Shown: positions 19,006 through 58,836, counted from the first letter of the stretch. The stretch is DNA of 64,000 nucleotides from Clostridium sp. (GCA_015058405.1 SVCL01000191.1:19424-83423); one strand, 5' to 3'. Notes: a model not told the origin generated them from the sequence alone. Translations and numbers: made by a program.

Positions 19006-19058
19006 AAAGTAATAGGTTGTTGAATGATTATATATATTCAACAACCTATTACTTTTTT
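19006..19058 (+). terminator. Intrinsic terminator of pyc; marks the left boundary of the gene cluster
   Basis: 20-bp inverted repeat AAAGTAATAGGTTGTTGAAT / ATTCAACAACCTATTACTTT followed by a T tract. Confidence 0.9.
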
Positions 19059-19292
19059 GCAAACATTTTAGATTTGTCTCATGGGAATAAAAAAGTTTTA
19101 ATTTATCATTATAAAAAGTTAAAGAAATATATAAATATAAAAAAATGAGACATTTGTAATATATTATTGGTTATTGAAAATAATGACGAAAAACCATGAA
19201 AAATAAAAAAGTTAAAAATTAAGAAAAAGTTAAGAAAAAATTGATTAATTGGTAAAAATGTGTTATGACATATAAAAATAAGGTTTTATGTA

Positions 19293-19320
19293 GGTTAACA
19301 GAAGTTTCGGCGCTTTAACT
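19293..19320 (+). promoter_or_regulatory. Candidate LoaP-responsive leader hairpin with UUCG tetraloop
   Basis: GTTAA-C-AG-AA-GT-[TTCG]-GC-G-CT-TTAAC folds into a bulged stem capped by UUCG. It is the only GC-containing patch in the AT-rich leader, and loaP is encoded in the cluster. Confidence 0.45.
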
Positions 19321-19477
19321 AAAGTAAAATTAATATAAAAAAATCATAAAAAATATATTTATAGAGCAGTGTTTTTTATAAATATATAAATTTGTTGTGC
19401 AAAAAAAAAGTGTCAGTTCTTGGAATACTATAATTTTTTTAAAAATATGTTATAAAAAATTAAGGGGTTGTAATAAT

Positions 19478-20179
19478 GTGAAAAAGATAAAATTATTTTG
19501 TATAGCACATGCAGGGGGATCAGCGGTCTCTTTTATTAAATGGAGAGATTATATAGATAAAAAAATAGAGGTGATACCTATAGAACTTTCAGGAAGAGGT
19601 GCTAGAATAGATCAAAAACTATATGATACTTTTGAGGAAGCAGTAGATGATGTATATAATGTAATTAATAGTGAAACAGAAAATAGTAAGTATGCTATAT
19701 ATGGACACAGTATGGGAAGCTGGATTGCTTTAGCATTATGTTATAAGCTTGCAAAAGAAAAGAGAAAACCTCCTGTACATTTATTTGTTTCAGGTAAGGA
19801 AGCACCATTTACAAAAGAAAAAGAAGAAAATATACATATGTTAAATGATAAGGAATTAGAGAAAAAATTAAAAGAATTAGGAGGAACTCCTAGATATATA
19901 TTTGAGAACGAAGAGTTAAAAAAGATGTTTTTACCTATTATAAGAGCTGATTACAAAATTATAGAAAGGTATAAGTTTAAAGAGAAACAGGAATTAAATT
20001 GCCCTATTTCTTTTTTTTATGGAATAAATGATTCAATAAGTGATTATGAAATAAATGGTTGGAGTAATTTTACTAATAATGAGTTCAGAATCATTAAGTT
20101 TAAAGGCAATCACTTCTTTTTATATGAAGATGTAGAAAAAGTAAGTGAAGAAATTAATTCAATATTAAAATGCTATTAA
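19478..20179 (+). CDS. Type II (editing) thioesterase; likely GTG start at 19478 (ORF track gives 19397)
   Basis: LFCIAHAGGSA, catalytic GHSMG, IIRADY, GNHFF; AAGGGG RBS before the GTG. Confidence 0.92.
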   Translation: MKKIKLFCIAHAGGSAVSFIKWRDYIDKKIEVIPIELSGRGARIDQKLYDTFEEAVDDVYNVINSETENSKYAIYGHSMGSWIALALCYKLAKEKRKPPVHLFVSGKEAPFTKEKEENIHMLNDKELEKKLKELGGTPRYIFENEELKKMFLPIIRADYKIIERYKFKEKQELNCPISFFYGINDSISDYEINGWSNFTNNEFRIIKFKGNHFFLYEDVEKVSEEINSILKCY

Positions 20180-20197: not shown

Positions 20198-21175
20198 ATG
20201 CAAAATATTTATTATTGGAATTATGTGAATCAATGGAAGATTGATGGCGAATATCTAATCATAGGAAAAGAGAAGTTTAAAGGAAGTGTTACAAAATTAT
20301 TTCCAGAGTTTTATTTTTATGCTCAAGACGGCATAGATGTAGATAATTTACCTGATTTATCGGATAAGGTTAATAAGAAGATAATTAAAATATTTACAAG
20401 AGATTTGATTAAAAAAGGAATATTAAGAAATACTATTAATACTCCTTCTGAAATATTTGAATCACAAAGTAAATATATTAAAAGCATATATGATGATAAA
20501 TATTTCTTTGAAAGTGAAAATGTAGAGAAATTTAAAAAGGAACAAAAGTCAAGATTTATTAATATGCATAATGATAATGATGAAATAGCTTTAGATAATG
20601 AGATAAGTATTCCAGATTTTATTATAAATAGAAAGAGCGTTAGAAATTATGACATAAATAAAAAAATAAGTTTTAATACAATTTCTAATTTATTAGGTGC
20701 ATTAAAAAAGGTAAAAGATGAAGAAAGGTTTTATTATCCAAGTGCTGGGGGACTATATCCTATTAATGTATATATCTATTTTAAAGAAGATAGGGTAGAA
20801 GGAATAAAACAAGGATTATACTTCTATAATCCTGTAGATAATAGTCTTCGTCTAGTAAATAGTAATTGTAGTATAAATGATGAAAGTCAATTCTTTACTA
20901 ATAAAAATATCTTCAAGACATCAGCATTTACCATGTATTTAACATATGATAGTGAAAGTAATTTCCCTAAATATAAAAGTGATGGATATTTTTATGGATT
21001 ATTAGATTGTGGTGCAATGGTATCATTAATGAATTATATTGCATCGTATTTAGGATTAGGTTCATGTTCTATTGGATCTATGAATTTTGATTCAATAAAG
21101 GACTTTTTTAAATTAAAGCAAAACGAAGAATACATTCATTCAATTGAGTTTGGCTATGAAAATAATGAGAATTAA
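20198..21175 (+). CDS. Stand-alone SagB/ThcOx-type FMN-dependent thiazoline oxidase (nitroreductase fold) with N-terminal extension
   Basis: NRKSVRNY, YPSAGGLYPINVY, LLDCGAM and LGLGSCSIG motifs; immediately precedes the NRPS carrying Cy domains. Confidence 0.88.
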   Translation: MQNIYYWNYVNQWKIDGEYLIIGKEKFKGSVTKLFPEFYFYAQDGIDVDNLPDLSDKVNKKIIKIFTRDLIKKGILRNTINTPSEIFESQSKYIKSIYDDKYFFESENVEKFKKEQKSRFINMHNDNDEIALDNEISIPDFIINRKSVRNYDINKKISFNTISNLLGALKKVKDEERFYYPSAGGLYPINVYIYFKEDRVEGIKQGLYFYNPVDNSLRLVNSNCSINDESQFFTNKNIFKTSAFTMYLTYDSESNFPKYKSDGYFYGLLDCGAMVSLMNYIASYLGLGSCSIGSMNFDSIKDFFKLKQNEEYIHSIEFGYENNEN

Positions 21176-21187
21176 GGGGGAATTTAC

Positions 21188-24100
21188 ATGGGAAAAAGGT
21201 ATTTGGGCGAATATCTGTATTTATTAAGAAAAGAGAATAATAAAGGGATAACTATATTACATTCAAATGAAGAAGAGGAATACATAACATATAGTGAATT
21301 CTATAAGTTATGTAATGAGTTTGGAGAAAAATTAAAGGCAGTAGGCATAAGTACAAGTGATAAAGTATTAATTCAAGTTAATAATCAAAAAAAGTTTATT
21401 GTTATAATGTGGGCTTGTATATTGAAGGGAATAGCATTTATACCTGTTAAGGCTATTGAGAGTAATATAGATAGAAACTTGGTTGAAAATATAGTAGGTC
21501 AACTTGATGATATTAAGATAATAGTAGAAGAGGATAATAAAAATAAATACAAACAGTTTTTAGAAGATTCTCTGATTAATTTCGAAGAAATAGATAAAGT
21601 AGAAATAGATAACAATGAAATTGAAAATGATGGAGTTATAAGTGATAATTCAATGGCTTTAATTCAGTTTTCATCAGGATCTACTGGAAATCCTAAAGGA
21701 ATAGTTATAAGTCATAAAAATATTATAGTTGATCTTGTCTCTGTAATTAAATCATATAAACTTCAAGAAGAAGATTCAATTATGACATGGATGCCTTTAA
21801 CTCATTCTTTTGGATTATTAGCAGTTCATATATTAGCTGTAATGAATTGTACAAGCCAATATATAATGCAAACTAATACATTTATAAGTAAACCTAATTT
21901 ATGGTTAAGAAAAACTTCAGAAAATAGAAGTTCTTATCTATTTGCTCCTAACTTTGCAATGCAATATATAGTGGATAATATAGAAGAATTAAAAGAAGAA
22001 AATTTGGATTTAAGTTGTGTAAAATCAATTGTTTCTGCAGCTGAAAATATAAAAGAAGTTACTTGTAATAACTTTATAAATACTTTAAAACAATTTAATT
22101 TAAAAGCTAATGTTATCCGTCCTGCTTATGGATTATCAGAAGGAACGATTTTTATTAGTGTAACTGATTTAGCTAAAGGACATGTTAAGCATATAGTAGA
22201 TAGAAAATGTTTAACTATAGGAAGTAAGTTGAAATTTTTAGATTCTAATAGTAATGAAGCTGTTACCTTTATTGAAGATGGTAAAGTTTTAGACTGTTGT
22301 GAGGTAAGAATTTGTGATGATAAAATGAATGTTTTACCAGAGGGGTATATAGGTAGAGTACAGATAAAAGGTCATATGTTAGCAGAAGGATATATCAATA
22401 ACAATTCTATAGAACCTCTTTATCTTGTAGATAATGAGTGGTTTGATACAGGAGATATTGGATTTTTAAATGATAATGCCTTAACTATAACAGGTAGAAG
22501 TAAAGAAATAATCATAATTAATGGTACAAATTTATATCCTTTTGACTTTGAAAATTTAATAGAAGAGAATACTAACATAAAGCATAATTCCACAGTAGTA
22601 GCAGCCTTGTATAATGAGGAAATAGGTGAGGATGAGATTTTAGTATTTACTGTATACGAAGAGGAATTGGGAGATTTTACGGATTTAGTAAAAGAAATTA
22701 GAAAAGTAGTAAAGAAGAATACTGGATTTAATATAAAAGATGTAATAAAGATAGATTCAGTTCCTAGAAATAATAATGGTAAAGTAAGAAGATTAGAGCT
22801 AGTACAAAATTATGCAGATGGCATTTATAAAAAAGAGAATTTAAGTAATAATAAAACAAATGTAGATAAGGAAAGTTCAGTAAATAAAATTAATTCTATT
22901 TTAATTGATGTAATTAGAAAAGAATTAAAAAATAATAGTATAGATATTACAGATTCAATTTTAGAATATAATATTTCATCTATAAAAATCATTAAGATAT
23001 TAGGAATATTAGCTAATGAGACAAAAGTGAAAATTGAATTTAGTGAATTTATCGATTGTGATACATTCTTAGAATTAGCTAATATTATAAATGAAAAATA
23101 TAGCACTAATGAAGTGGTGGAAGCGGATAAGAAAATAGTAATTGATAAAGAAAATTTATATGAAGAATTTAATTTAACTAATATACAAATGGCTTATTTA
23201 ATGGGAAGAAATAAGCAATTTGAATTAGGAGATACTTCAACACATTACTATGCAGAAATAGAAACAACACTTGATATAGATAAGTTAAATAAGAGCCTAA
23301 ATGATGTTGTTAAAAGACAACCTATGTTAAGAGCAATATTTACTAATAATGCTAAACAAAAAATATTAGAAAGTGTTCCAGAATATAAAATCGAAGTAAT
23401 AGATGCAGTGAATAAAGAAGATATTTTAATGGCTGAAAGAAATAAAATGTCTCATCATATGTTTGATCCATATACTTGGCCATTATTTGATTTTAAAGCT
23501 TTAAAGATATCAGAAGAAAAATATAGATTACTATTTGGTATAGATTTATTAGTATCAGATGGTGCAAGTATTCAAATGTTATTTAAAGAAATAGCTGATG
23601 TTTATTATGGTAAAGATAAGGAAGAATTAGATATTACATTTAGAGATTATATATGTTCTAAGGAAGGATTATGTGAAACTGAAGCTTATAAAGTTGATAA
23701 AGAGTTTTGGAATAATAAAATTCCTGATATTCCACAGGCACCACAGTTACCTTTAAAGGTGAGATTAGCTGATATTAAGAAACCTCACTTTTTAAGAAAG
23801 GAAGCTATTATAGAATATGAGGACTGGAATAAGTTAAATGATTTATGTAAGAAACATAATACAAGATTAACATTTATGTTACTTACAGCATATTCATTAG
23901 TGCTTTCTAGATGGAGTAATCAAAAGGATATATCTCTAAATACAACAATATTCAATAGGGAATTAGCAAATGAAAGTATCCATAAGATAATAGGAGATTT
24001 TACATCAGCGTTAATTTTAGATGTTGATACTAAAGATAGAAATGATTTCTGGAAGTTAGCTAAAGAAGTTCAAGATAATTTTATGAATTTATATAGTCAT

Positions 24101-27100
24101 AAAAATTATGATGGAGTTAATGTAATTAGAGATTATAGTACTTACAATAATTTAGATAACAAGTCAGCAATAATGCCAATTGTATTTACTAGTATGTTAT
24201 TTGATGAAGAGGATAGTAACTTCGGAAATATAGGAGAAATGGTATACGGTATAACACAAACTTCTCAAGTATATTTAGATCATCAAGTAATGAATTTAGA
24301 AAAAGGAATATTATTAAATTGGGATTATGTTAGCGAAGCATTTGAAGAAGATACTATTAATTCAATGTTTAAAGAATATGTTGACTTAATTATGAACTTA
24401 TCAAATGATATTAATATAAATGAAGCAACTTATGAAGTAGAAAAAATGTTTGATAAGTATAATGATACATCAGAAGAATTTTCTACAGAAACATTACAAG
24501 AAATGTTTAGAAAGCAAGTTCTATTGAATCCAGAAAATATTGCGTTAAAGTATAAAGAAAAAGAAGTTTCTTATAAAGAACTTGATATTGCATCCAATAA
24601 AGTAGCAAATTATTTATCTAAAGAAAATGTACAAAAAGGAGATTTAGTAGGGGTACTAGCAGAGAGAAGTATAGAAAGTATCATTAGCATATTAGGTATC
24701 TTAAAAGCTGGTGCTGGATATATTCCTATAAATCCTGATTTTCCAGATGAGAGACAAAAGTATATATTAGATAATGCTAATTCTAACATTTTACTTAATT
24801 CAGAATTATGCAAGAATATAATAAAGAATTATGAAGAAAAGACAGATAATATATATGATAATGTAGATGATATTGCATATATAATTTACACATCTGGTAG
24901 TACTGGAAAACCAAAAGGTGTTGTTATAAAACATAAAGCAGTGTGCAACACAATTAAAGATATAAACAATAGATTCCATGTGGATAAAGATGATGTGTTT
25001 ATTGGATTAGCATCATTAAGTTTTGACTTATCAGTTTATGATATTTTTGGAAGCTTAACTACAGGTGGTAAGCTAATAATCATTGATGATCAAAGAAATG
25101 TTGAAGATGTAAGTAATATAGTAAAAAATGAAAAAGTAACAATATGGAATTCGGTTCCAGCTGTTATGGAAATGTTAATAGATTACAGAGAATCTCATGA
25201 AGAACAAGTTATAGATTACGATGATTTAGATGAATTAAGATTAGTTCTATTAAGTGGTGATTGGATTCCAGTTTCATTACCAGAAAGAATAAAAGACGAG
25301 TTTATGGATTGCCAAGTAATAAGTTTAGGTGGAGCAACTGAAGCATCAATATGGTCAATATATTATCCTATAGAAGAAGTAGATGAAAATCTTACAAGTA
25401 TACCATATGGATATCCTCTAGCCAATCAAACATATTATGTTTTAAATTATAATATGGAACTTTGTCCTGTAGGTGTAAAAGGTGAGTTATATATTGGAGG
25501 AGTTGGACTTGCAGAATGTTACTTAAATGATGATGAAAAAACTAATAATTCTTTCATTATACATCCTAAATATGGAAGAATCTATAAAACTGGAGATATG
25601 GGTAGATTTACTAATAATGGTTATATAGAATTCATGGGTAGAAATGATTCACAAGTTAAGGTTAGAGGATACAGAATAGAACTTGGAGAAATTGAAGCAG
25701 CAATATTAGAAAATACTAGTATAAAAAATGCAGTTATATTAAATGGAAAAGATAAAAATGGTATAAGTACATTGTTTGCATTCTTTACTTCAGAATCAGC
25801 TGTTGATATCCAAAGTTTAAGAAATACTTTAAAAGAATCATTACCTAAATATATGGTCCCAACATACTTAAAACAAGTTGATGAGATTCCATTAACTAAT
25901 AATGGAAAGATTGATAGAAAAACATTATTATCAATGGATTTAGAAGAGTCTGGATATAAGAAAGTTATAATACAACCTAAGAATGTTGTAGAAGCAAGAT
26001 TAGTAGAATTATGGAAAGAACTATTAGGTATTAAAGAAGTAAGTACAGATGATAATTTCTTTGAATTAGGTGGTAATTCAATTTTAGTAATTAAATTAGT
26101 AAGTTTAATAGAAAAAGAATTTAATATTAAAATTGACTTCAAGAATTTCATTGAAAATAGCAAAATCAAACAAATGGCTAAAATAATTGATAATTCTGAA
26201 AAGAAAAGTGATGATGATATAACATTTAAGGAAATTATTTTAGATGTTGAAAATCAATATGAGGAATTTGATTTAACTAATATACAAATTGCTTATTTAA
26301 TAGGTAGAGATAAACAATTTGAATTAGGTGGTACTTCAACACATGCCTATATGGAAATAGAAACAACATTAGAGATAGAAAAATTAAATGATGCTTTAAG
26401 AAAAGTAATACAAAGACATCCAATGTTAAGAGCTATTATTTTACCAAATGGTAAACAAAAAGTATTAGAAAATGTTCCTGATTATAATATTGAAGTAATA
26501 GATTTAACAAATAAGACTGTAGAAGAAAAAGAAGATTGTAACTTAAAGTTAAGGCATGAAATGTCACATCATATTTTTGATACTGATGTTTGGCCACTAT
26601 TTAATTTTAAAGCATTAAAAATGGATGTTAGTACTTATAAGATATTATTTGAAATTGACTTATTAATTGCAGATGGTGCAAGTATTCAAATGATATTTAA
26701 AGAAATGAAAGAATTCTATGATGGTAAGGAAAAGAAAGAATTAGGAATAACATTTAAAGATTATATGTGTAATTACAAATCTGTGTTAGAAAGTAAGAAG
26801 TATAAGGAAGATAAAGAATACTGGCAAAATAAACTTCCAGAAATACCTAAGGCAGCTCAATTACCATTAAAGAAGAAGGTTTCAGAAGTTGATGAACCTA
26901 ACTTTGGAAGAAAGCTTAGAATAATAGAAAATTCTACATGGGCTAATATTTGTGAAAAGGCAGCACAAAATAGCATAACACCAGCAATGATATTATTTAC
27001 AGCATATGCAAAAGTATTATCTAGATGGAGTAATCAAGATAAATTATCTATAAATACTACAGTATTTAATAGATTACCTATTCATGAGGATGTTAATGAT

Positions 27101-30100
27101 GTTATAGGAGACTTTACTTCATTAATGTTATTAGGTGTAGATACAAGCGTAGAAGATGATTTTTGGCTATTATGTAAGTCAATTCAAAGAGAGTTTATGG
27201 AAGCATTAGATCATAGAGATTATGATGGAATAAATGTAATTAGAGATTATTGTTCATATAATGAATTAGACAAAAATTCAGTAGCAATGCCTATAGTTTT
27301 CACAAGTATGCTATTTGGAAAAACTTTAGATTTATCTAATTCTATTTCTTCAATAGGTGATACATTAATGTCTGTAACTCAAACTTCTCAAGTATATTTA
27401 GATTATCAAATAATGGAAGTTAAAGATGGAATTCAATTAAGTTGGGATTATATAAAAGAGTTATTTGATGAAGATGTAATAACTAATATGTTTAATTATT
27501 ATATAGATTTAATATTAAGCTTAGTTGGAGATAAACCAGGAATTGTAGAAGATGCATATTTAGATAAATTTATAGAAGATTATAATAATACAGATGAAGA
27601 TGTAAAGGTAGAAACACTACAAAAATTATTTATGAATAAGGCTAAAGAGTATCCTAATAATATAGCAGTAAAATTGGGAGATAATAGCTTTACTTATAAG
27701 GAATTAGATGAAAGATCTAATAAGATAGCAAATTATTTAATGGAAAATCAAGTTGGTAGAAATGATTATATAGGAATATACGCAAAAAGAGATATAAACA
27801 CAATTGCTAATATTTTAGGAGTTCTAAAAACAGGGGCTGCATATGTGCCTATAGAACCAGAATATCCAGATGAAAGAAGAGAATATATTTTATCCAATAG
27901 TAATTGTAAGTTTATGTTAGTACCTGATTTTTATGATGATAATGATATTGATGAGTATTCACAAGAATTTTTAGGCGTAGATGATAATAAGGAAGATGTT
28001 GCTTATATTATTTATACATCAGGTAGTACAGGAAAACCAAAAGGTGTTGTAATTAAACATGAATCAGCAGCTAATACAATAATAGATATGAATAATAAGT
28101 ATAATGTTACTTCAGAGGATAGAGTTATAGCATTATCATCAATGGGATTTGACTTATCTATTTATGATATATTTGGTTCATTATCTTCAGGAGCAACTTT
28201 GGTTATGATAAAAGATCATAGAGATATTATTAATTTGATTGATATTGTAACTAAAGAGAAAATAACTATATGGAATTCAGTTCCAGCTATAATTAATATG
28301 TTTATTGATAATGTAGATTCCGGATATATTAATGAAGATTTAAAACATATATTATTAAGTGGAGATTGGATAGGCTTAAAGCTACCAAATAGAATAAAAG
28401 AATGTTTTGTAAATGCTGATGTTACAAGCTTAGGAGGAGCAACAGAAGGATCTATATGGTCTATCTATTATCCAATAAATGAAATGAAGAGTAAGTGGAA
28501 GAGTATACCATATGGAATGCCTTTAGCTAATCAAAAAATATATATATTAGATTATCAAATGAAACACTGCCCTATAGATGTTGAAGGAGAAATATTTATA
28601 GGTGGTATTGGTGTAGCAAATGGTTATATAAATGAAGAAGAAAAAACTAAGGCAGCCTTTATAAATCACCCAACATTAGGATATATTTATAAAACAGGTG
28701 ATTATGGAGTATTAAGAAAAGAAGGTTACGTAGAATTTATAGGAAGAAAAGATTATCAAATAAAAATAAGAGGATATAGAATAGAACTTGGAGAAATCGA
28801 AAAGAGAATACTTGAATATAAAAATATAAAAACAACAGTTGTAGTTGATAAAGTTGATTCAAGAAATAATAAGTATTTATGTGCATATATAGTTTCTGAT
28901 AATCAGATAAATATTAGCGAAATAAGCGATTACTTAATTGAGGTTTTACCAGAATATATGGTTCCAAGGATAGTAATGCAAATTGATGAAATACCATTAA
29001 CTCAAAATGGAAAAGTTAATTTAAAGGCATTACCTGAACCAGAAATGTTAGAGGAAGTTGCAAGTGATAATTATATTGAGGCTTCAGGAGAAATTGAAGA
29101 AAAGTTACTAGAAACATGGAAAGAAGTATTTGATTCTGAAAATATTGGTGTTGCAGATAGATTCTTTACTTTAGGTGGAGATTCAATAAAAGCAATTCAA
29201 ATATGTGCAAAGGTAAAGAAATATGGATTTAAGTTAAATGTACATGATATTTTATTAAATCAATCAATTAATAAGATAAAGAATTGTATAACATTAACTG
29301 AATTGAAATGTGATCAAGGAGTAGTAACAGGTAAGAGTAAGCTTACTCCAGTACAAAAGTGGTTCTTTGAACATGAATTTAAAAATATGAATCAATGGAA
29401 TCAAGGTTATATGCTATTTAGAAAAGAAGGATTTGATGTAGCAATATTAGAAAAGACTTTAGATAAGTTAGTAGAACATCATGATGCATTAAGATCTAAT
29501 TTTAGAATGAATGAAAATGTATTAGTGGAATACTTTGAAGATGTAGATAATAAATCATATAACTTATCTGTACTAGATTTAAGAACTGATGATAACTTCA
29601 AAGATACTATTAATACTGAAGTTGAAGCTGTACAAAAATCCTTAGATATAGAAAATGGTCCAATGGTTGGTGCAAAGATATTTAGTACTATAGAAGGGGA
29701 TTACTTATTTATGACAATTCATCATTTGGTTGTTGATGGTATATCATGGAGAATAATTCTTGAAGATTTAAATAGTATTTATATGCAATTATTAGAAGGA
29801 GAAGAAGTTATCTTACCAGAAAAGAGTAGCTCATTTAAGCAATGGAGTGAAGCATTATACAGTTATGCTGAAAGCAATAAGATATTAGAGATGGCAGAAT
29901 ATTGGTCAAGATTTAATTCTGAAACAGAATTTGTATTACCAAAGGATAATAATTTTGATACTAATATGATGAAGGATAGTTCAACTGAAATAATGAGTAT
30001 TTCTAAGGAAGATACAGATAGATTATTACAAGGTACTAGTAAGAATATTGATGCCGATATAAATGAAATTCTGTTAACAGCGTTGGCTATAAGCATCAAA

Positions 30101-30724
30101 AATTGTTATGACAAATCTAGATTTATAATTAATATTGAAGGTCATGGAAGAGAAAATATAGTGAATAATATTGATATATCTAGAACTGTTGGATGGTTTA
30201 CATCTATTTCACCTTTACTTTTAGATATAACTAATAGTACTAATATTGAAGAATCAATAGAAGAAGTAAAGAAAGAAGTAAGAGCAATACCAAATAAAGG
30301 TGTGGATTATGGAATATTAAGATATATTGCATCAGATGAAATTAGAAATAATATAAATTTAAATATTAATCCTGAAGTTACATTCAATTATTTAGGTCAA
30401 ATGGGACAACAAAGAGAAGATGATGCGTTTAAGGTATTACCAGATTATATTGAAAATTGTATGAATGAAGAATCAGAGAGAGCTTCTTTCTTAGATGTAT
30501 TTGGTGTTACAGTAGATGGTAGTCTTACATTTAGATTTATATACAATTCTAAAGCATGTAATAAAGAGACTATGGAATTATTAAGTGAAAACTTCAAGAA
30601 AGCAATATTTGATATTATAGATTATTGCGAATCTCAAGAAAGTAGTAATAATTCAGTAGATTTATTAGAAAATGATATATCAGAAGATGAATTCGATGAT
30701 ATACTTGACATATTAAATGAGTAA
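21188..30724 (+). CDS. NRPS 1: FAAL-ACP-Cy-A(Cys)-PCP-Cy-A(Cys)-PCP-E
   Basis: FAAL motifs QFSSGSTGNPKG, WMPLTHSFGL, YGLSEGT and ITGRSKEIIIING. Cy signatures DLLVSDGAS and DLLIADGAS. Both A domains give by-eye code DLYNLSLIWK (Cys). PCPs GGNS and GGDSI. E domain HHLVVDGISW and EGHGRE. Confidence 0.93.
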   Translation: MGKRYLGEYLYLLRKENNKGITILHSNEEEEYITYSEFYKLCNEFGEKLKAVGISTSDKVLIQVNNQKKFIVIMWACILKGIAFIPVKAIESNIDRNLVENIVGQLDDIKIIVEEDNKNKYKQFLEDSLINFEEIDKVEIDNNEIENDGVISDNSMALIQFSSGSTGNPKGIVISHKNIIVDLVSVIKSYKLQEEDSIMTWMPLTHSFGLLAVHILAVMNCTSQYIMQTNTFISKPNLWLRKTSENRSSYLFAPNFAMQYIVDNIEELKEENLDLSCVKSIVSAAENIKEVTCNNFINTLKQFNLKANVIRPAYGLSEGTIFISVTDLAKGHVKHIVDRKCLTIGSKLKFLDSNSNEAVTFIEDGKVLDCCEVRICDDKMNVLPEGYIGRVQIKGHMLAEGYINNNSIEPLYLVDNEWFDTGDIGFLNDNALTITGRSKEIIIINGTNLYPFDFENLIEENTNIKHNSTVVAALYNEEIGEDEILVFTVYEEELGDFTDLVKEIRKVVKKNTGFNIKDVIKIDSVPRNNNGKVRRLELVQNYADGIYKKENLSNNKTNVDKESSVNKINSILIDVIRKELKNNSIDITDSILEYNISSIKIIKILGILANETKVKIEFSEFIDCDTFLELANIINEKYSTNEVVEADKKIVIDKENLYEEFNLTNIQMAYLMGRNKQFELGDTSTHYYAEIETTLDIDKLNKSLNDVVKRQPMLRAIFTNNAKQKILESVPEYKIEVIDAVNKEDILMAERNKMSHHMFDPYTWPLFDFKALKISEEKYRLLFGIDLLVSDGASIQMLFKEIADVYYGKDKEELDITFRDYICSKEGLCETEAYKVDKEFWNNKIPDIPQAPQLPLKVRLADIKKPHFLRKEAIIEYEDWNKLNDLCKKHNTRLTFMLLTAYSLVLSRWSNQKDISLNTTIFNRELANESIHKIIGDFTSALILDVDTKDRNDFWKLAKEVQDNFMNLYSHKNYDGVNVIRDYSTYNNLDNKSAIMPIVFTSMLFDEEDSNFGNIGEMVYGITQTSQVYLDHQVMNLEKGILLNWDYVSEAFEEDTINSMFKEYVDLIMNLSNDININEATYEVEKMFDKYNDTSEEFSTETLQEMFRKQVLLNPENIALKYKEKEVSYKELDIASNKVANYLSKENVQKGDLVGVLAERSIESIISILGILKAGAGYIPINPDFPDERQKYILDNANSNILLNSELCKNIIKNYEEKTDNIYDNVDDIAYIIYTSGSTGKPKGVVIKHKAVCNTIKDINNRFHVDKDDVFIGLASLSFDLSVYDIFGSLTTGGKLIIIDDQRNVEDVSNIVKNEKVTIWNSVPAVMEMLIDYRESHEEQVIDYDDLDELRLVLLSGDWIPVSLPERIKDEFMDCQVISLGGATEASIWSIYYPIEEVDENLTSIPYGYPLANQTYYVLNYNMELCPVGVKGELYIGGVGLAECYLNDDEKTNNSFIIHPKYGRIYKTGDMGRFTNNGYIEFMGRNDSQVKVRGYRIELGEIEAAILENTSIKNAVILNGKDKNGISTLFAFFTSESAVDIQSLRNTLKESLPKYMVPTYLKQVDEIPLTNNGKIDRKTLLSMDLEESGYKKVIIQPKNVVEARLVELWKELLGIKEVSTDDNFFELGGNSILVIKLVSLIEKEFNIKIDFKNFIENSKIKQMAKIIDNSEKKSDDDITFKEIILDVENQYEEFDLTNIQIAYLIGRDKQFELGGTSTHAYMEIETTLEIEKLNDALRKVIQRHPMLRAIILPNGKQKVLENVPDYNIEVIDLTNKTVEEKEDCNLKLRHEMSHHIFDTDVWPLFNFKALKMDVSTYKILFEIDLLIADGASIQMIFKEMKEFYDGKEKKELGITFKDYMCNYKSVLESKKYKEDKEYWQNKLPEIPKAAQLPLKKKVSEVDEPNFGRKLRIIENSTWANICEKAAQNSITPAMILFTAYAKVLSRWSNQDKLSINTTVFNRLPIHEDVNDVIGDFTSLMLLGVDTSVEDDFWLLCKSIQREFMEALDHRDYDGINVIRDYCSYNELDKNSVAMPIVFTSMLFGKTLDLSNSISSIGDTLMSVTQTSQVYLDYQIMEVKDGIQLSWDYIKELFDEDVITNMFNYYIDLILSLVGDKPGIVEDAYLDKFIEDYNNTDEDVKVETLQKLFMNKAKEYPNNIAVKLGDNSFTYKELDERSNKIANYLMENQVGRNDYIGIYAKRDINTIANILGVLKTGAAYVPIEPEYPDERREYILSNSNCKFMLVPDFYDDNDIDEYSQEFLGVDDNKEDVAYIIYTSGSTGKPKGVVIKHESAANTIIDMNNKYNVTSEDRVIALSSMGFDLSIYDIFGSLSSGATLVMIKDHRDIINLIDIVTKEKITIWNSVPAIINMFIDNVDSGYINEDLKHILLSGDWIGLKLPNRIKECFVNADVTSLGGATEGSIWSIYYPINEMKSKWKSIPYGMPLANQKIYILDYQMKHCPIDVEGEIFIGGIGVANGYINEEEKTKAAFINHPTLGYIYKTGDYGVLRKEGYVEFIGRKDYQIKIRGYRIELGEIEKRILEYKNIKTTVVVDKVDSRNNKYLCAYIVSDNQINISEISDYLIEVLPEYMVPRIVMQIDEIPLTQNGKVNLKALPEPEMLEEVASDNYIEASGEIEEKLLETWKEVFDSENIGVADRFFTLGGDSIKAIQICAKVKKYGFKLNVHDILLNQSINKIKNCITLTELKCDQGVVTGKSKLTPVQKWFFEHEFKNMNQWNQGYMLFRKEGFDVAILEKTLDKLVEHHDALRSNFRMNENVLVEYFEDVDNKSYNLSVLDLRTDDNFKDTINTEVEAVQKSLDIENGPMVGAKIFSTIEGDYLFMTIHHLVVDGISWRIILEDLNSIYMQLLEGEEVILPEKSSSFKQWSEALYSYAESNKILEMAEYWSRFNSETEFVLPKDNNFDTNMMKDSSTEIMSISKEDTDRLLQGTSKNIDADINEILLTALAISIKNCYDKSRFIINIEGHGRENIVNNIDISRTVGWFTSISPLLLDITNSTNIEESIEEVKKEVRAIPNKGVDYGILRYIASDEIRNNINLNINPEVTFNYLGQMGQQREDDAFKVLPDYIENCMNEESERASFLDVFGVTVDGSLTFRFIYNSKACNKETMELLSENFKKAIFDIIDYCESQESSNNSVDLLENDISEDEFDDILDILNE

Positions 30725-30739
30725 GGAGAGATTTAATAT

Positions 30740-32173
30740 ATGAGTAAAGATAAAAAAGATATTAAAAGTATATATGGACTTTCTCCTATGCAAACTGTAA
30801 TGCTATTTAATTCAATAAAAAGCGCAAACAATGACGATGATCCTTATTTCAGACAATATTTAATTGATATACAAGGTGAAGTATGCGTTGAAAATTTAAA
30901 AAAGAGTATGCAGTTAATTATTGAAAGATATGATATTTTACGAACAGCTTTTGTTTATGAAAAAGTTAAACAACCAGTACAAGTAGTTTTTAATAGTAGA
31001 GAAATATCTATAGGATACGAAGATTTATCTAATTTAGATGAAGAGAAGCAAAAAGATGCTATAGATAAAATGATGAAAGAAGATAAGAAGATTAAATTTA
31101 ACTTATCAAAAGATGTTCTAAACAGAATGAAATTAATTAAGTTATCAGATAAGAAATATAAACTTTTATGGAGTAATCATCATATTTTAATGGACGGTTG
31201 GTGTGGAAGTATAATTCTTAATGAATTTTGTGATATTTATGAATCGCTTCAAGAAAATAAGAGAGTAAATTTACCAGCTGTAAATCAATATAGTGAATAC
31301 ATAAATTGGTTAAAGAAATATAATAAAAATGAAGCTTTAATGTATTGGAAAAAGTATTTAGCTGGATATAAAAATAAAACTAGTATACCGACTAATAAAA
31401 CTAATAAAATATATGAATACAATGAATTAGTATTGAAGCTAAATAAAGAAACTACCAGTAGATTGAAAAAATTTGCATTAGATAATCAAGTTACTTTATC
31501 AATAGTAGTAGATATTTTATGGGGATTACTTTTACAGGCTTACAATGAAACAAATGATTCAATGTTTGGAATGGTTGTATCAGGAAGAATGGCTCCTGTT
31601 GATGGAATTGAAAAAATGGTAGGTCTATTTATAAATACTATTCCAATGAGAATTAAGATATCAAATAGTACAAGTTTTTCAGATTTAAAAAATCAAGTAC
31701 AACAAGCAGTTATATATGGAGAAAAATATAGTAGTGTTTTATTAACTGAAATGTTGTCAGCAGCTAGCATAAATAATGATATGTTAGATCATATGGCTGT
31801 ATTTGAAAACTATCCAAGTGATGGTATTATAAAGAATAAATATTTTAGCTGCAAATTCATGAATTCAGCAGAAAAGACAAATTATGATTTTAATGTTTTA
31901 TTTTATCCAGGGGACGAAATAGAAGCTAGATTTACTTATAATAAAAATATGTATAGTGAAGAAATTATTAAAGTAATAATTAGTCATTTAGAAAAGTTAT
32001 CTAATAGTATTATTAAAGATGCAGATAAAACTTTATTAGATGAAAAGTTGAAAAAAGAATTGTTATTTGAATTAAGAGAAAAGCTAATAGATATAGAATG
32101 TGCTGATATTCTTAATGAAAAATTAAGCTTTTCTGAAGTTATTCCACAAGATGAAGGAAGCTTTACATTTTAA
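30740..32173 (+). CDS. Stand-alone condensation domain (DCL-type)
   Basis: IYGLSPMQ, RYDILRTAF, HHILMDGWC, VGLFINTIP; no A or PCP domain; ends QDEGSFTF. Confidence 0.92.
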   Translation: MSKDKKDIKSIYGLSPMQTVMLFNSIKSANNDDDPYFRQYLIDIQGEVCVENLKKSMQLIIERYDILRTAFVYEKVKQPVQVVFNSREISIGYEDLSNLDEEKQKDAIDKMMKEDKKIKFNLSKDVLNRMKLIKLSDKKYKLLWSNHHILMDGWCGSIILNEFCDIYESLQENKRVNLPAVNQYSEYINWLKKYNKNEALMYWKKYLAGYKNKTSIPTNKTNKIYEYNELVLKLNKETTSRLKKFALDNQVTLSIVVDILWGLLLQAYNETNDSMFGMVVSGRMAPVDGIEKMVGLFINTIPMRIKISNSTSFSDLKNQVQQAVIYGEKYSSVLLTEMLSAASINNDMLDHMAVFENYPSDGIIKNKYFSCKFMNSAEKTNYDFNVLFYPGDEIEARFTYNKNMYSEEIIKVIISHLEKLSNSIIKDADKTLLDEKLKKELLFELREKLIDIECADILNEKLSFSEVIPQDEGSFTF

Positions 32174-32187
32174 AATATTATAGTAGG

Positions 32188-32228
32188 AAAATTCTCTTTT
32201 ATAACTAGGTTATAAAAGAGAATTTTTT
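32188..32228 (+). terminator. Intrinsic terminator inside the NRPS operon
   Basis: 18-bp perfect stem AAAATTCTCTTTTATAAC / GTTATAAAAGAGAATTTT, loop TAG, T run at 32223-32228, between co-directional NRPS genes. Confidence 0.7.
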
Positions 32229-32278
32229 CGTGCTAAAAAATATATATTATTTTACATTAAAATGAAGGGAGAAATTTT

Positions 32279-35200
32279 ATGTTTAATGATTCTAAAGAAA
32301 CAGATTTAGAAAAGTTAAAAAGGCAACGTTCATATTGGATGAATAAATTATCAGATTATCTTTGTGAAAATAAGTTTCCATATAATAATGTAATTAACGG
32401 AGATAAAGAATATATTATTGAGAAATATACAGTAGATAATGAAATGTTATTAAGTTTAAAGAATATATCTGGTAACTCTAAAAGAAGATTATATGTTTTA
32501 TTAGTATCTTGTATGTGTATATTACTTTATAAAAATACTAAGAAAAATAAAATGGTAATAGGTTCGCCTATCTTAAAGCAAAAAGAGAAAAAAGAATATA
32601 TAAACACATTAATTCCTATAGTGGCAGATTTAAATGATGATATATCCTTTAAAGAATTAGTACTATCAATAAATGAGACAATGCTTGAAGCTTACGATAA
32701 TCAAGATTATCCAATGAAAAATATAATAGAAAATTTAAAGAGGGATAGTAAAAAGGATGATTTAGAATTATTCTCTATAAATACTAGAGAACATAGTATT
32801 CATGAAAATTGTTATGATGAAGAATTGAAAAGAGAATTAAATTTACAATTTTCAATAAATGATAAGAATATAGAGATTAATGTAGAATATAATTCTTCTT
32901 ATTACGTAAAAGACTATATTGATACTTTGATTAATCAATATAAAAATATAATTAAAGTAGCTTGTAATAATCCTAAAGTGATGCTTAAAGATATATCTTT
33001 AATATCATTAGAGGAAGTAGATTTAATATTAAATAAATTTAATAATACTAAAACTAATTACCCTAGCGGAAAGAGCGTTAAAGATATTTTTGAAGAAACA
33101 GCAAGAGAAAATAAAGATAAGATAGCTGTTGTATCAGGAGACAGAAGTTTAACTTATGGAGAATTAGATGAAAAATCTAATCAAATAGCTCATTCCTTAA
33201 TTGGCCAAGGAATTGAAAATAATGATGTTGTAGCTATATTATGCGATAAAAGTATAGATACAATAGTAGGAATATTAGGAATAGTAAAAGTGGGTGCAGC
33301 TTATTTACCAATTGATACAAGCTATCCTAAAAGCAGAGTAGATTATATGGTATCTGATAGTAAAGCAAAAGTATTACTATTGCGACAAGATTCTATTGAT
33401 AATAAGGTTGTTAAGGATTTACCTTTAAATAGAATTGTTATAGATAGTAAAGAGGTTCTATTAGAAGATAAGGAAGCGGTTAATAGAGTAGTATCAGCGC
33501 AAGATTTAATATATATTATATATACCTCAGGAAGTACTGGAAAACCTAAAGGTGTATGTGTTATGAATAAAAATGTAGTTAGATTAGTTAAGAATACTAA
33601 TTATGTAGAATTCAAAAAGGAAGATAGAATATTACAAACAGGTTCTATAGCATTTGATGCATCAACTTTTGAGGTATGGGGATCATTATTAAATGGTTCA
33701 GCTTTATATGTAGAAAGCAAAGATATAATACTAGATAGTAATGTAATTAAAGATTATATTAATAAAAATAATATTTCAGTTATGTGGTTGACTTCTCCAT
33801 TATTTAATCAATTATGTGAAGATAAAGTTGAGATTTTTTCTAACTTAAGATATTTGATAGTAGGAGGAGATGTAGTATCTCCGAAGTATGTAAATAAGGT
33901 AAGAAAAATTAATGATAGTATTGTAATAGCTAATGGATACGGACCAACAGAAAATACAACTTTCTCTACTGTTTATTTAATAGATAAAGATGTAGATGAA
34001 GAAAAAACAATACCAATAGGAAAACCAATATCAAATTCAACTGCCTATGTATTAGATAAAAATCAAAATTTAGTACCAATAGGTACAATAGGTGAATTAT
34101 ATGTTGGTGGTGAAGGTGTAGCAAAAGGGTATTTAAATAGAGAAGATTTAACAAAAGAAAAGTTTATAGAAAATCCTTTTAATAAATCAGAAAGATTGTA
34201 TAGAACAGGGGATAAAGTAAGGCTGCTAAAAGACGGAAATATAGAGTTTTTAGGTAGAATAGATTATCAAGTAAAAATAAGAGGATTTAGAATAGAGTTA
34301 CAGGAAGTAGAAAGAAGAATATTAGAACATGAAAATGTTAAAGAAGTTGTAGTATTAGATAAGTTAGATAAGCATGGAAGTAAATGTTTAGCAGCTTATA
34401 TAGTGGGAGAAAATGAAATAAAAGCATCAGAAATTAGGGCGTATTTAATAGAAAGATTACCTGATTATATGATACCTTCTGAATTCTATATTATTGAAAA
34501 GATGCCATTAAATCAAAATGGAAAAGTTGATAGAAAAGAATTACTTCTATTAGAAGCTAAGGAAGATAGTAGCGAAGAGTGTTGTAAAGGTAGAAATGAA
34601 ATAGAAAATTTATTAATTGATATATGGGAAAGTGTTTTAGTAAGGAAAGGAATTGGAATATATAATGATTTCTTTACTTTAGGTGGAGATTCTATAAAGA
34701 TAATTCAAGTTCTTTCTCAATTAAGAAAATATAACTATAAATTAAATGTACAAGATTTCTTTAATTATCCAACAATTTCAGAATTAGCTCTTCATATTAA
34801 AACTATTGATGAAGAAATAGATCAAAAGTTAGTTGTAGGAAAAACTAATTTAACACCTATTCAAGAGTGGTTTTTTAATGAAAGTAATAACGAAATAAAT
34901 CACTTTAATCATTCTGTAATGATTTTCAAAGAAGATGGATTTGATTTAAAAGTATTAAAGAAAACATGTCATAAGTTAATTGAACATCATGATGCATTAA
35001 GAATGACTTATAAATTTGAAAATGATAAGATTACTGGATTTGTTAATGATCTAAATGAAAATAGCTTAAAATTTAAAGTTATAGATTTAAGAAATAGCGA
35101 TTATTATGAAGATATAATAGAGCAAGAAACAATGAAAGAGCAAAAATCAGTAGATATAAGAAAGGAATCACTTACTAGATTTGTTTTATTCAAAACACCA

Positions 35201-37669
35201 ATAGGTGATAAATTATTAATAATAGTACATCATTTGGTGATAGATGGTGTTTCATGGAGAATATTGTTAAGAGACTTAGAATTAGGATATTCTCAAGGAA
35301 TAAAGGATGAAGAAATTACATTTGATAAAAAGACTATTTCTTATAAAAAGTGGTCAGAAATATTAGAAGATTATTCTACAGGTGAAAAGTTAAGAAGAGA
35401 AAAATTATATTGGAATAAGATAGTTCAAAAAGACATTAAGAAACTTCCTAAATTAGTAGATGCTAAGTCAGATAATATTAAAGATGGACAGACTATTACT
35501 GTTGAATTAGATAAAGCTGCAACAGTAGATTTGTTAGAAAAGACTAGTAAAGCTTTCAACACAGAAATTAATGATATATTATTATCAGCATTACAAATAA
35601 GCTTGTATAAGTGGATAGGCAATGGAGAAATAGCTATAAATCTTGAAGGACATGGTAGAGAGGCAATAGTAGAAAACGTTGAATTGAGTAATACTATAGG
35701 ATGGTTTACTTCCTTATATCCAGTAATATTAGATTTAAAACAAAATGATAATGTTGGATATATGATAAAGAATTTGAAAGAAAGATTAAGAAAGATACCT
35801 AATAAAGGAGTAGGTTATGGAATATTAAAATATATAACTGCTCAAAAGGAAGAATCTATTGTTAATCTTAATTTTAAACCAGAGATAAGCTTTAACTATA
35901 TGGGACAATTTGATATGAACTTAAATAGTGATATTTTTAAGATCGATGAGTTCTTATTAAAATCTTCAGTTAGTGAAGAAGTAAGAAGAAACTTTGCTAT
36001 AGATATAGTTGGAATAATGATAAATGAAAATATAGTTTTTAGATTTAATTATAATAAAGAAGAGTTTGATAAAGAAACAATAACTTCCTTTGCTAATAAT
36101 TATATTGAAGCATTAAAAGAAATAATAGACTTCTGTAAATCTGTAAAAGAGACAGAATATACTCCTTCAGATTTTGGCGATAATACTTTAACAATAGATG
36201 AATTGAATATCATAAAAGATAAATGCGGAAAAAATATAAAGAAAATTTATCAGCTAACACCTTTGCAAGAAGGTATGGTTTATCATTCATTAGTAGGGGA
36301 TGAATCAGGAAATTATGTAGTTCAATCTGTCATGGATTTTAAAGGAATATTAGATGAAAATTTATTTATAAAGGCTTTTGATTTAGTACTTAATAAATAT
36401 GAAATTTTCAGAAGTAGAATTTTCTATAAAAATATAGATAAGATAAGACAAGTTATTTTGAAAAAGTCAGAAATAGAATATGTATATGAAGACATATCAA
36501 ACTTTGATTTAGATACTAGAAAAGAAAAGTTTGATAATTTCATAGAAGAGGATAGACAAAGAGGATTTGACTTAGAGCAAGATAGTTTAATGAGAATAGC
36601 TATATTTAGAGATAAGACAGATATGTACAAGGTAGTTTGGAGTTTCCATCATGTTATTTTAGATGGATGGTGTTTAGGAATTGTATTAAATGATATCTTT
36701 ACTTTCTATAGAGAATTAAAACTTAATAGAAACGTGGAAAGTAAAGAAAGTGTAGAATTTGGTGAATATATAAAATGGCTAGCTGAAAAAGATAAGGAAG
36801 AAGCTAGAACTTATTGGAGAGAGTATTTAAAAGATATAAAAGATATCGTGGGATTCTCTAAATTAAAAGAAGATAATCCTAATAAACCTAAGTCAAAGAA
36901 TACTAATTTATTTAAAATTAATGAAGAATTATTAGAAAAACTTAATAAAAAGGCTTCAGAAAATAAGGTGACATTAAGTAATATAATTCAATCTATATGG
37001 GGAATTTTATTAAGTAAATATTGTAATAGTTCAGATATTGTATTTGGTTCTGTAATATCAGGTAGATCAGGTGACTTTGAAGGAATTGAAAATATGGTTG
37101 GTTTATTTATAAATACTATACCAATAAGAGTTAATTTAAATAATGAAACTAATTTCAAAGATATAGTTACAAAGATGCAAAAAGATCAAGTACAAAATGA
37201 GAAGTTTAGTTATTATCCTCTTATTAAGATACAAAGAGATAATAATATAGAAACTGATTTAATTGACACTATTATAGCTTTTGAAAATTATCCTTTAAGT
37301 ATAGATAAGATAAATGAAGAGCTAAGTCAAACTGATTTAGAGATAGATAAGGCATATTCTATAGAGCAAACAAATTATGATTTTGAAATTGTAATTATAC
37401 CAGGAAAAGAATTAGAGGTTAGTTTTGTATACAATTCAAATGCATATAGTGAAGAATTTGTAAATAGAGTTTCTTCAGATATGCAAAAGATAATAGAAAT
37501 AGTAAGCGAAGATTTTTCAATAAATATAAGCGAAATTAATTTACTAGGAAATAGTGAAAAGGAAAAATTAATAAAGCAATATAGAGAAGAAGTTTCCTTA
37601 AATAATATCAATTATACAGGAAATGAAGAAGCAGCTTTAAGTGAAGATGATATAGATTTTGATTTTTAA
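32279..37669 (+). CDS. NRPS 2: half-C - A(Val) - PCP - E - C(DCL)
   Basis: N-terminal ~250 aa resemble the C-terminal lobe of a C domain with no HHxxxDG. A code DAFWIGGTFK (Val). PCP GGDSI; E HHLVIDGVSW; C HHVILDGWC; ends EDDIDFDF. Confidence 0.92.
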   Translation: MFNDSKETDLEKLKRQRSYWMNKLSDYLCENKFPYNNVINGDKEYIIEKYTVDNEMLLSLKNISGNSKRRLYVLLVSCMCILLYKNTKKNKMVIGSPILKQKEKKEYINTLIPIVADLNDDISFKELVLSINETMLEAYDNQDYPMKNIIENLKRDSKKDDLELFSINTREHSIHENCYDEELKRELNLQFSINDKNIEINVEYNSSYYVKDYIDTLINQYKNIIKVACNNPKVMLKDISLISLEEVDLILNKFNNTKTNYPSGKSVKDIFEETARENKDKIAVVSGDRSLTYGELDEKSNQIAHSLIGQGIENNDVVAILCDKSIDTIVGILGIVKVGAAYLPIDTSYPKSRVDYMVSDSKAKVLLLRQDSIDNKVVKDLPLNRIVIDSKEVLLEDKEAVNRVVSAQDLIYIIYTSGSTGKPKGVCVMNKNVVRLVKNTNYVEFKKEDRILQTGSIAFDASTFEVWGSLLNGSALYVESKDIILDSNVIKDYINKNNISVMWLTSPLFNQLCEDKVEIFSNLRYLIVGGDVVSPKYVNKVRKINDSIVIANGYGPTENTTFSTVYLIDKDVDEEKTIPIGKPISNSTAYVLDKNQNLVPIGTIGELYVGGEGVAKGYLNREDLTKEKFIENPFNKSERLYRTGDKVRLLKDGNIEFLGRIDYQVKIRGFRIELQEVERRILEHENVKEVVVLDKLDKHGSKCLAAYIVGENEIKASEIRAYLIERLPDYMIPSEFYIIEKMPLNQNGKVDRKELLLLEAKEDSSEECCKGRNEIENLLIDIWESVLVRKGIGIYNDFFTLGGDSIKIIQVLSQLRKYNYKLNVQDFFNYPTISELALHIKTIDEEIDQKLVVGKTNLTPIQEWFFNESNNEINHFNHSVMIFKEDGFDLKVLKKTCHKLIEHHDALRMTYKFENDKITGFVNDLNENSLKFKVIDLRNSDYYEDIIEQETMKEQKSVDIRKESLTRFVLFKTPIGDKLLIIVHHLVIDGVSWRILLRDLELGYSQGIKDEEITFDKKTISYKKWSEILEDYSTGEKLRREKLYWNKIVQKDIKKLPKLVDAKSDNIKDGQTITVELDKAATVDLLEKTSKAFNTEINDILLSALQISLYKWIGNGEIAINLEGHGREAIVENVELSNTIGWFTSLYPVILDLKQNDNVGYMIKNLKERLRKIPNKGVGYGILKYITAQKEESIVNLNFKPEISFNYMGQFDMNLNSDIFKIDEFLLKSSVSEEVRRNFAIDIVGIMINENIVFRFNYNKEEFDKETITSFANNYIEALKEIIDFCKSVKETEYTPSDFGDNTLTIDELNIIKDKCGKNIKKIYQLTPLQEGMVYHSLVGDESGNYVVQSVMDFKGILDENLFIKAFDLVLNKYEIFRSRIFYKNIDKIRQVILKKSEIEYVYEDISNFDLDTRKEKFDNFIEEDRQRGFDLEQDSLMRIAIFRDKTDMYKVVWSFHHVILDGWCLGIVLNDIFTFYRELKLNRNVESKESVEFGEYIKWLAEKDKEEARTYWREYLKDIKDIVGFSKLKEDNPNKPKSKNTNLFKINEELLEKLNKKASENKVTLSNIIQSIWGILLSKYCNSSDIVFGSVISGRSGDFEGIENMVGLFINTIPIRVNLNNETNFKDIVTKMQKDQVQNEKFSYYPLIKIQRDNNIETDLIDTIIAFENYPLSIDKINEELSQTDLEIDKAYSIEQTNYDFEIVIIPGKELEVSFVYNSNAYSEEFVNRVSSDMQKIIEIVSEDFSINISEINLLGNSEKEKLIKQYREEVSLNNINYTGNEEAALSEDDIDFDF

Positions 37670-37685
37670 TAAGGAGTAGATAGAA

Positions 37686-41585: not shown

Positions 41586-41611
41586 AACATAAGTAATTTG
41601 GGGGAGTTATT

Positions 41612-45325: not shown

Positions 45326-45344
45326 ATATTATTGGAGGGGTTGT

Positions 45345-46595: not shown

Positions 46596-46613
46596 ATTTT
46601 AAAAGGAGGAAGT

Positions 46614-50153: not shown

Positions 50154-50181
50154 ATAAATATTTTTTTAGGGGGAATTTAAA

Positions 50182-51105: not shown

Positions 51106-51147
51106 TTTCATCTAGAGAGCTAAAGTAAAGAGGCGGAGGATATAAAA

Positions 51148-54915: not shown

Positions 54916-54927
54916 GGGGGGAGATTT

Positions 54928-56223: not shown

Positions 56224-56266
56224 AAAATTGTATTTACAACAACCAAGATTTAGGGGAGTGCAATTA

Positions 56267-58784: not shown

Positions 58785-58836
58785 TTTTTGATGGAAAAAA
58801 TATTAAATTTATATTAATGGTTTAAGAGGGATTGAG

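Follow-up and report, generated by a model that had tools for sequence, protein, structure and literature searches.

The leader of a large NRPS/PKS cluster in the genome of a Clostridium sp. raises the question of whether a 28-nt hairpin can be the site at which the antiterminator LoaP gains access to RNA polymerase. LoaP controls long antibiotic gene clusters. Its binding hairpin is reportedly found in the dfn and mln leaders of Bacillus velezensis, in work ascribed to Goodson in 2017 and to Elghondakly in 2021 and 2024. The first-pass annotation of the stretch analyzed here (64,000 nt, referred to below as the window) had singled out a bulged, UUCG-capped hairpin in the cluster leader and proposed that it was a clostridial equivalent of the Bacillus element, which it described as a small hairpin with a UNCG tetraloop and asymmetric bulges. 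This description agrees with the sequence of the dfn hairpin RNA used experimentally in B. velezensis, GGCCAAUCGCGUCUUCGGCACGUUGCC (Jermain 2025, PMC12691694, Table S2). The RNA hairpin constitutes the LoaP recruitment signal, and both the hairpin and LoaP residues E40, R41 and I143 are required for antitermination and antibiotic production in B. velezensis (PMC12691694). The analysis reported below suggests that the window hairpin is probably a diverged ortholog of the dfn-type hairpin and a functional LoaP site. The system is a known LoaP system and not a new one, to which the divergent hairpin adds a case.

The hairpin lies on the coding strand of the 5' leader, 157 nt ahead of the GTG codon (19478) that opens the first gene of the cluster, close to the 160 nt originally estimated; this cluster contains the only loaP of the genome. 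The sequence, GGUUAACAGAAGUUUCGGCGCUUUAACU, confirmed the hairpin and the structure drawn for it: GUUAA can pair with UUAAC and, beyond a bulged C, AG can pair with CU, followed by an AA/G internal loop, a GU/GC helix and the UUCG loop. Read in terms of the type-B hairpins described below, these elements become bulged C19299, a 2-bp step (A-U and G-C), a bulged A and an upper stem of A.G, G-C and U.G, the last of which closes the UNCG-type tetraloop (UUCG). All 28 positions of the type-B model align globally and without gaps, and nine of the ten pairs form; the third upper pair is the A.G mismatch. Folding tests showed that the structure can form, but that its stability is no better than that of shuffled sequence (MFE −2.0 to −2.6 kcal/mol, z +0.5 to +0.6); the 251-nt leader as a whole gave a z of −0.3. 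Since z is also close to zero for the published dfn RNA (−0.04) and for further LoaP hairpins (−0.2 to −0.9), folding energy does not discriminate LoaP hairpins from background.

The gene preceding the leader encodes pyruvate carboxylase and is followed by a strong terminator (19006-19055, −25.7 kcal/mol), the hairpin lying 237 nt beyond. No terminator was recognizable in the window leader, and an Rfam scan of the leader returned no relevant family. The AT-only hairpin listed in Table 1, a counterpart of which occupies the equivalent place in the C. butyricum-type leaders considered below (alignment A6), is not convincing as a terminator. Two promoter-like hexamers had been pointed out upstream of the hairpin, TTGATT at 19241 and TATAAA at 19271. 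Both are present; as a pair they fail, because a separation of 24 nt is too great for sigma-70 recognition. At 19261-19269, TGt-TATGAC makes a better −10 partner for TTGATT, from which it is separated by 17 nt, and a consensus scan upstream of the hairpin found nothing stronger than this combination. A promoter here would start transcription about 15-20 nt before the hairpin. A further promoter-like site, at 19330-19359, lies downstream and the hairpin might therefore not be transcribed.

Table 1. Position of the features discussed in the text and aligned hairpin blocks (alignment A6)
Feature	Coordinates	Strand	Basis or aligned block
Weak promoter-like site, TTGATT, 17 nt, TGt-TATGAC	19241..19269	+	own scan; predicted
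GUAG, abutting the 5' side of the hairpin, common to C. butyricum-type leaders	19289..19292	+	alignment A6
Candidate LoaP-binding hairpin, dfn type (type B)	19293..19320	+	sequence, type-B model alignment, relatives' leaders
AT-only hairpin, 11- to 14-bp, 13-nt loop, about 30 nt past the LoaP-type hairpin	19353..19388	+	fold −8.7 kcal/mol, z −1.25
Type II thioesterase, first cluster gene	19478..20179	+	Pfam PF00975; BLASTP
Biosynthetic genes and exporter, all co-directional	20198..56223	+	Pfam
Intrinsic terminator inside the operon, 18-bp perfect stem and U run	32188..32226	+	own scan, −17.3 kcal/mol
Possible loaP promoter, TTGATG, 16 nt, TATATT, in the 52-nt gap before loaP	58788..58815	+	sequence reading
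loaP, NusG-paralog antiterminator, 165 aa	58837..59334	+	NF033641, Pfam NusG, PDB 8f5g
Hairpin block, window			GUAG-GUUAA-C-AG-A-AGU-UUCG-GCG-CU-UUAAC-UAAAGUAAAAU
Hairpin block, C. butyricum			GUAG-UUUAA-U-CG-C-UGU-CUCG-GCA-CG-UUAGA-UAAGGGAAAU
Hairpin block, metagenome			GUAG-UCUAA-U-CG-U-UGU-CUCG-GCA-CG-UUGGA-UAGGGGAAAU

The interval between the hairpin and loaP is occupied by a single co-directional cluster. Following the thioesterase, it encodes a nitroreductase-like protein, five multi-module NRPSs (the last with a terminal reductase domain), a stand-alone condensation protein, a trans-AT, a hybrid KS-ACP-C PKS/NRPS, a CAAX-protease-like protein and an MFS exporter; an ABC exporter and one gene with no Pfam match are also included. 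The loaP gene begins 39.5 kb downstream from the hairpin, as anticipated (about 39 kb), and is followed by genes for a beta-lactamase-family hydrolase and then a two-component system. Its product matches the NCBIfam model NF033641 ("antiterminator LoaP") over the full length (residues 3-164) with 176.5 bits against a cut-off of 125, and scores far under the NusG and RfaH cut-offs. It matches the Pfam NusG family, and its best relative in the PDB is 8f5g (1.6e-28). The gene is present in one copy in the 3.7-Mb, 28% G+C genome. The closest relative found among the representatives of 15 billion proteins, the LoaP protein of C. estertheticum, is 46% identical, and by sequence the window LoaP is an isolated lineage. 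A second hairpin just past loaP (59356-59373, +; UUUAAC-AAGUUC-GUUAAA) was considered and discarded: it is a plain 6-bp stem (−2.6 kcal/mol) that contains UUCG but lacks the LoaP architecture.

To place the window hairpin among its possible kin, about 700 Clostridia genomes were searched with the LoaP model, yielding about 80 loaP loci. Two hairpin families emerged. Type A consists of a stem, a bulged U, the core GUUUCGGC and the closing stem; it usually lies 10-130 nt past loaP in polysaccharide-type loci (L003-L020, L033-L061; alignment A3), and seven of its nine pairs covary among 23 sequences, a score reached by none of 500 shuffles. Type B, to which dfn belongs, has a lower stem ending in AA, a bulged U, a C-G and a G-C pair, a second bulge, a 3-bp upper stem, the loop, and then CG and UU (alignment A7; L009, L010, L013, L014, L031, L049, L052, L060, L086-L112). 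Among its 24 sequences, dfn included, seven of ten pairs covary, again with 0/500 shuffles reaching the observed score; the bulged U (24/24), the C-G pair (23/24) and the G-C pair (24/24) are constant or nearly so. Characterized by AAUCG...CGUU and two 5' bulges, type B is widespread in LoaP-encoding Clostridia and often lies far from loaP. Many clostridial members have loops other than UNCG, which is thus not universal in this type. An Rfam scan of 14 LoaP loci found no family matching either type, and these two covarying, LoaP-linked families without an Rfam match are by-products of some use. Locus L004 is intermediate: built like type B, it contains the core GUUUCGGC, and a U-A pair replaces the usual C-G. 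The window hairpin likewise joins the exact type-A core to the type-B bulge architecture, a combination for which L004 provides a precedent. A scan of metagenomes with a degenerate hairpin pattern returned chance matches, except for one hairpin like type A or L004.

LoaP-type hairpins in cluster leaders far from loaP proved to be common in Clostridia. A parallel was found in a member of the Clostridiaceae (G021; L118:4700-5900(-), L116, L117, L084; G021:C49:139984-205355), where a consensus promoter, a type-B hairpin, a GGCGAAGC element, a strong leader terminator, a PPTase gene and about 65 kb of NRPS/PKS genes precede loaP, which comes last. A leader hairpin, a long operon and loaP at the 3' end are also the layout of the window. 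The GGCGAAGC element (GUGAAnGGGCGAAGCUAUG) is a second conserved feature of many clostridial LoaP leaders, those of G021 and G087 among them, located 50-100 nt past the hairpin (L005-L020, L052, L060, L009:1110-1135(-), L118:5262-5282(-), L119:8575-8600(-)). It is absent from the window in a search allowing up to 3 mismatches, is not visible by eye in C. butyricum-type leaders and is not among the dfn oligonucleotides in the supplement of PMC12691694. Copies elsewhere in the window's genome are part of an unrelated repeat. In C. estertheticum (L119:8480-10010, −), loaP is divergent from a trans-AT PKS operon whose leader has the element; the leader hairpin, CAAGUGC-AGUUUAG-GCACUUG, differs and is recognized by none of the covariance models introduced next.

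Three covariance models were built without the window: R1 from type A, R2 from type B and R3 from type B together with the C. butyricum-type hairpins. R1 gave the window hairpin 7.2 bits, in a local alignment restricted to the core; R2 gave 8.0 bits, global and ungapped; R3 gave 10.1 bits, which ranked fourth in the 64-kb window (E about 3.8). True type-B members score 21-34 bits. On this check the candidate fell below significance, and its membership in a family is not statistically supported by the models. The low scores are explained by a change at two invariant positions, the bulged U being C and the C-G pair being A-U. The conserved AAUCG...CGUU reads AACAG...CUUU in the window, with G-C and AA/UU kept. 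If the altered positions are LoaP contacts, the changes may weaken binding. The best R3 match of the window (57946-57972, −; 14.2 bits) lies antisense within the ORF at 57141-58784, does not fold and was dismissed as a false positive; a match elsewhere in the genome (G000:C28:51154) does not fold either and was rejected.

These scores, together with the unremarkable fold, raise the possibility that the hairpin arose by chance in an AT-rich intergenic region and has nothing to do with LoaP. In 7-17% of trials, random sequences flanking GUUUCGGC folded equally well. The core was found 11 times in the genome, nine times inside ORFs, once upstream of a tRNA gene and once in the window leader. The probability that any of these copies falls within the 420-nt leader on the correct strand by chance is about 6e-4, which speaks against a fortuitous hairpin. 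The comparison with homologous clusters, described below, does so as well, and we consider a chance origin very unlikely. The copy near the tRNA gene (G000:C41:20077-20111, +; outside the window) forms a stable hairpin (−12 kcal/mol) with a GG/AA internal loop, about 45 nt upstream of the gene. The genome also contains, in at least 12 contigs and often near contig ends, a repeat containing GCGTGGCGAAGCCACTTTTT(T) (e.g. C19:4545-4590, C52:100-145); it comprises a GC-rich hairpin and a T run, and is probably a repeated terminator or the end of a mobile element.

Direct searches of genome and metagenome contigs for homologues of the window LoaP and for related loci produced no matches, and a thioesterase search of 126 genomes of the genus gave a best match of 49% identity and no hairpin. 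Homologous NRPS clusters were reached by another route, passing from protein representatives to the homologues of a relative and from these to the contigs that encode them. Such clusters are present in C. butyricum (L120, L121) and on the metagenome contigs L122-L124. The gene order runs from an ABC transporter and a beta-lactamase-family gene through loaP, a leader of about 380-415 nt and the thioesterase to an NRPS and a condensation protein of 478 aa, then, across a gap, to an NRPS of 1790 aa. The window shares the succession thioesterase, NRPS, condensation gene, gap and NRPS; LoaP and thioesterase are each 46% identical, and the end-to-end alignment of the thioesterases supports the GTG start. 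The ABC transporter, hydrolase and loaP genes, which stand upstream of the leader in the C. butyricum-type clusters, lie 3' of the NRPS genes in the window. The window cluster thus resembles a circularly permuted version of the C. butyricum type (54928-63220 of the window against L120:5269-10495).

In the leader of each relative, a canonical type-B hairpin (33.9 bits) follows loaP by 60-160 nt and precedes the thioesterase gene. When aligned with MAFFT (A6), the window block matched those of the relatives without gaps, with the flanks GUAG and UA..G.AAAU in common. The alignment comprises four sequences and three distinct hairpin versions; 97.5% of its cells are paired in the common structure. 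Three compensatory double changes were identified, all of them in the window: U-A to G-C, C-G or U.G to U-A, and C-G to A-U. In the shuffle test, 13 of 500 shuffles scored as high. The place, the architecture, the flanks, the G-C and U.G upper pairs and the internal terminator described below are the same in the window and in the relatives. The relatives differ in conforming to the type-B consensus, in having a CUCG loop, in their proximity to loaP and in the strong terminator (−18 to −20 kcal/mol) that separates hairpin and thioesterase gene; besides the compensatory changes, the window has the C bulge, the A.G mismatch and the UUCG loop. Across orthologous clusters the hairpin is conserved with covariation, having a counterpart before the same thioesterase gene and three compensatory pairs in what is a small sample of four sequences.

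Local alignment of the entire leaders of the window and C. butyricum was not significant against shuffles, so that homology is argued from the hairpin block and synteny. This lack of similarity could again be taken to favor a chance hairpin. However, when the C. butyricum 45-mer was compared without gaps to the entire genome, the window site ranked first among 7.4 million positions (31 of 45 identities; the runner-up had 28), and it was in the top 13 when the metagenome 45-mer was used. This ranking, the gapless alignment with the equivalently placed hairpins of homologous clusters and the compensatory changes speak against an accidental structure.

A different alternative is one in which the hairpin descends from a canonical one but lost the U bulge and the C-G pair after the rearrangement and no longer recruits LoaP, the protein then using some other signal or being without function. 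Such decay would account for the changed invariant positions, the A.G mismatch and the low model scores; the lack of the leader terminator and of the GGCGAAGC element and the weakness of the promoter would fit as well. Nonetheless, random decay would not produce three double changes that preserve pairing. Moreover, loaP is intact and matches its family model over the full length, a strong internal terminator has been retained for it to override, and the genome offers no alternative hairpin. We therefore regard a decayed relic as unlikely, and favor a site that has diverged while remaining functional. The search for alternatives was made with all three models: R1 and R2 found nothing else in the genome, and the one R3 match was the non-folding sequence mentioned above. 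The leader hairpin is plausibly the sole LoaP loading site in this genome.

A third alternative is that the hairpin has a structural role that does not involve LoaP, for instance as a 5' mRNA stabilizer or as a signal for RNase processing. UUCG hairpins close to the 5' end can protect transcripts, and the GUUUCGGC hairpin upstream of the tRNA gene (C41) shows that the same core exists elsewhere in this genome. The architecture is nevertheless the bulged and weak one of LoaP hairpins and not that of a stable protective stem, and the counterparts in the relatives lie next to loaP. A role of this kind appears highly improbable. Taken together, the comparative data support the original proposal of a clostridial equivalent of the Bacillus element: a genuine, single-copy loaP is accompanied by a hairpin having positional and structural counterparts and compensatory changes, all of which are consistent with a LoaP site.

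What LoaP might act upon is suggested by the intrinsic terminator at 32188-32226, which occupies the only long intergenic gap of the operon (105 nt). The segment 32183-32235 folds with −21.6 kcal/mol (z −7.6). The corresponding gap of C. butyricum contains a near-identical terminator (L121:19545-19600, −15.6 kcal/mol, z −6.2). Its retention within an assembly-line operon, across a divergence corresponding to 46% identity, argues for regulated readthrough and gives LoaP something to override. In the dfn cluster, LoaP acts at internal terminators, in dfnE and dfnI (PMC12691694), and the terminator of the window is a likely target of LoaP readthrough. The hairpin would most likely be where LoaP loads so as to read the 39-kb operon through this terminator.

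According to the model that we favor, transcription would start at the weak promoter about 20 nt upstream, so that the hairpin would form in the nascent leader soon after initiation. The loaP gene at the cluster's 3' end, possibly expressed from a promoter of its own, would supply the protein, which would bind the hairpin and join the elongating RNA polymerase. The modified polymerase would then read past 32188-32226 and any weaker sites, allowing the whole 39-kb NRPS/PKS operon to be transcribed. LoaP binding, polymerase loading and antitermination in the window are thus envisaged by analogy with Bacillus velezensis (PMC12691694). Since loaP itself lies beyond the terminator to be overridden, the arrangement may give rise to positive feedback, except if the gene has a promoter to itself; the possible promoter in the gap before the gene (58788-58815) may allow it to be transcribed independently of the operon.

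The residues that B. velezensis LoaP requires for hairpin binding were provisionally mapped onto the window protein by way of 8f5g and the relatives. E40 would correspond to E39, which is kept, R41 to T40 (in the motif ETK), and I143 to the isoleucine of FNIHG, also kept. The loss of arginine from the "ER" motif suggested itself as the cause of the change from C-G to A-U in the hairpin. This explanation was rejected, for C. butyricum LoaP, which is 46% identical to the window protein, shares the ETK motif and adjoins a canonical hairpin with C-G. By the same token, a threonine at the position of R41 is compatible with a type-B hairpin. It is conceivable, though we hold it to be doubtful, that the window LoaP, as a member of an orphan lineage, has co-evolved with its hairpin toward an altered specificity, in which the possible contacts would now be the C and the A-U pair, the structure being kept by compensation. 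If so, the two would represent a natural orthogonal pair of antiterminator and RNA tag, and loaP, lying behind the terminator it has to override, would make the cluster a positive-feedback switch.

Under the preferred reading, that of a diverged and functional LoaP site, the published Bacillus paradigm would extend to a clostridial NRPS/PKS cluster with loaP at the far end, behind a conserved terminator, and the window would show how much of the consensus a hairpin can lose with its structure intact. This suggests that heterologous expression of the silent-looking cluster, or of its C. butyricum relatives, needs loaP together with the leader. The variant hairpin and its LoaP would in addition be useful for probing which nucleotides LoaP reads.

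Compared with type A, the window hairpin has the identical 8-nt core, GUUUCGGC. Type A, however, has a continuous stem with an invariant bulged U immediately 5' of the core, whereas the window has A at that position, together with an internal loop and a second bulge. No NusG paralog other than LoaP is known to be recruited by an RNA hairpin. The RfaH/ops and UpxY systems resemble it in that a specialized NusG paralog is recruited by a leader signal and makes a long operon resistant to terminators; their signals, however, are carried by the non-template DNA of a paused complex, whereas LoaP is directed by a hairpin in the RNA (PMC12691694). Many clostridial LoaP leaders carry an ops-like element, GGCGAAGC, that the window does not have. 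The dfn hairpin differs from that of the window in the bulge (U as opposed to C), in the first pair of the step (C-G as opposed to A-U) and in the closing pair (C-G as opposed to U.G). The dfn and mln layouts differ as well, in that loaP adjoins the leader, whereas the window has it at the end of the cluster, 39 kb farther downstream, and has no recognizable terminator in the leader. These differences are set against a common design. The dfn and window hairpins measure 27-28 nt and share the UUCG tetraloop, G18 and C19 after the loop and the G9-C21 pair. In both, the lower stem contains AA/UU, position 7 is a lone bulged pyrimidine, and the 2-bp step is topped by an asymmetric segment with 4 nt on one side and 3 nt on the other. 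Like its dfn and mln counterparts, the window hairpin belongs to a LoaP-encoding genome and stands in the 5' leader of a long NRPS/PKS operon.
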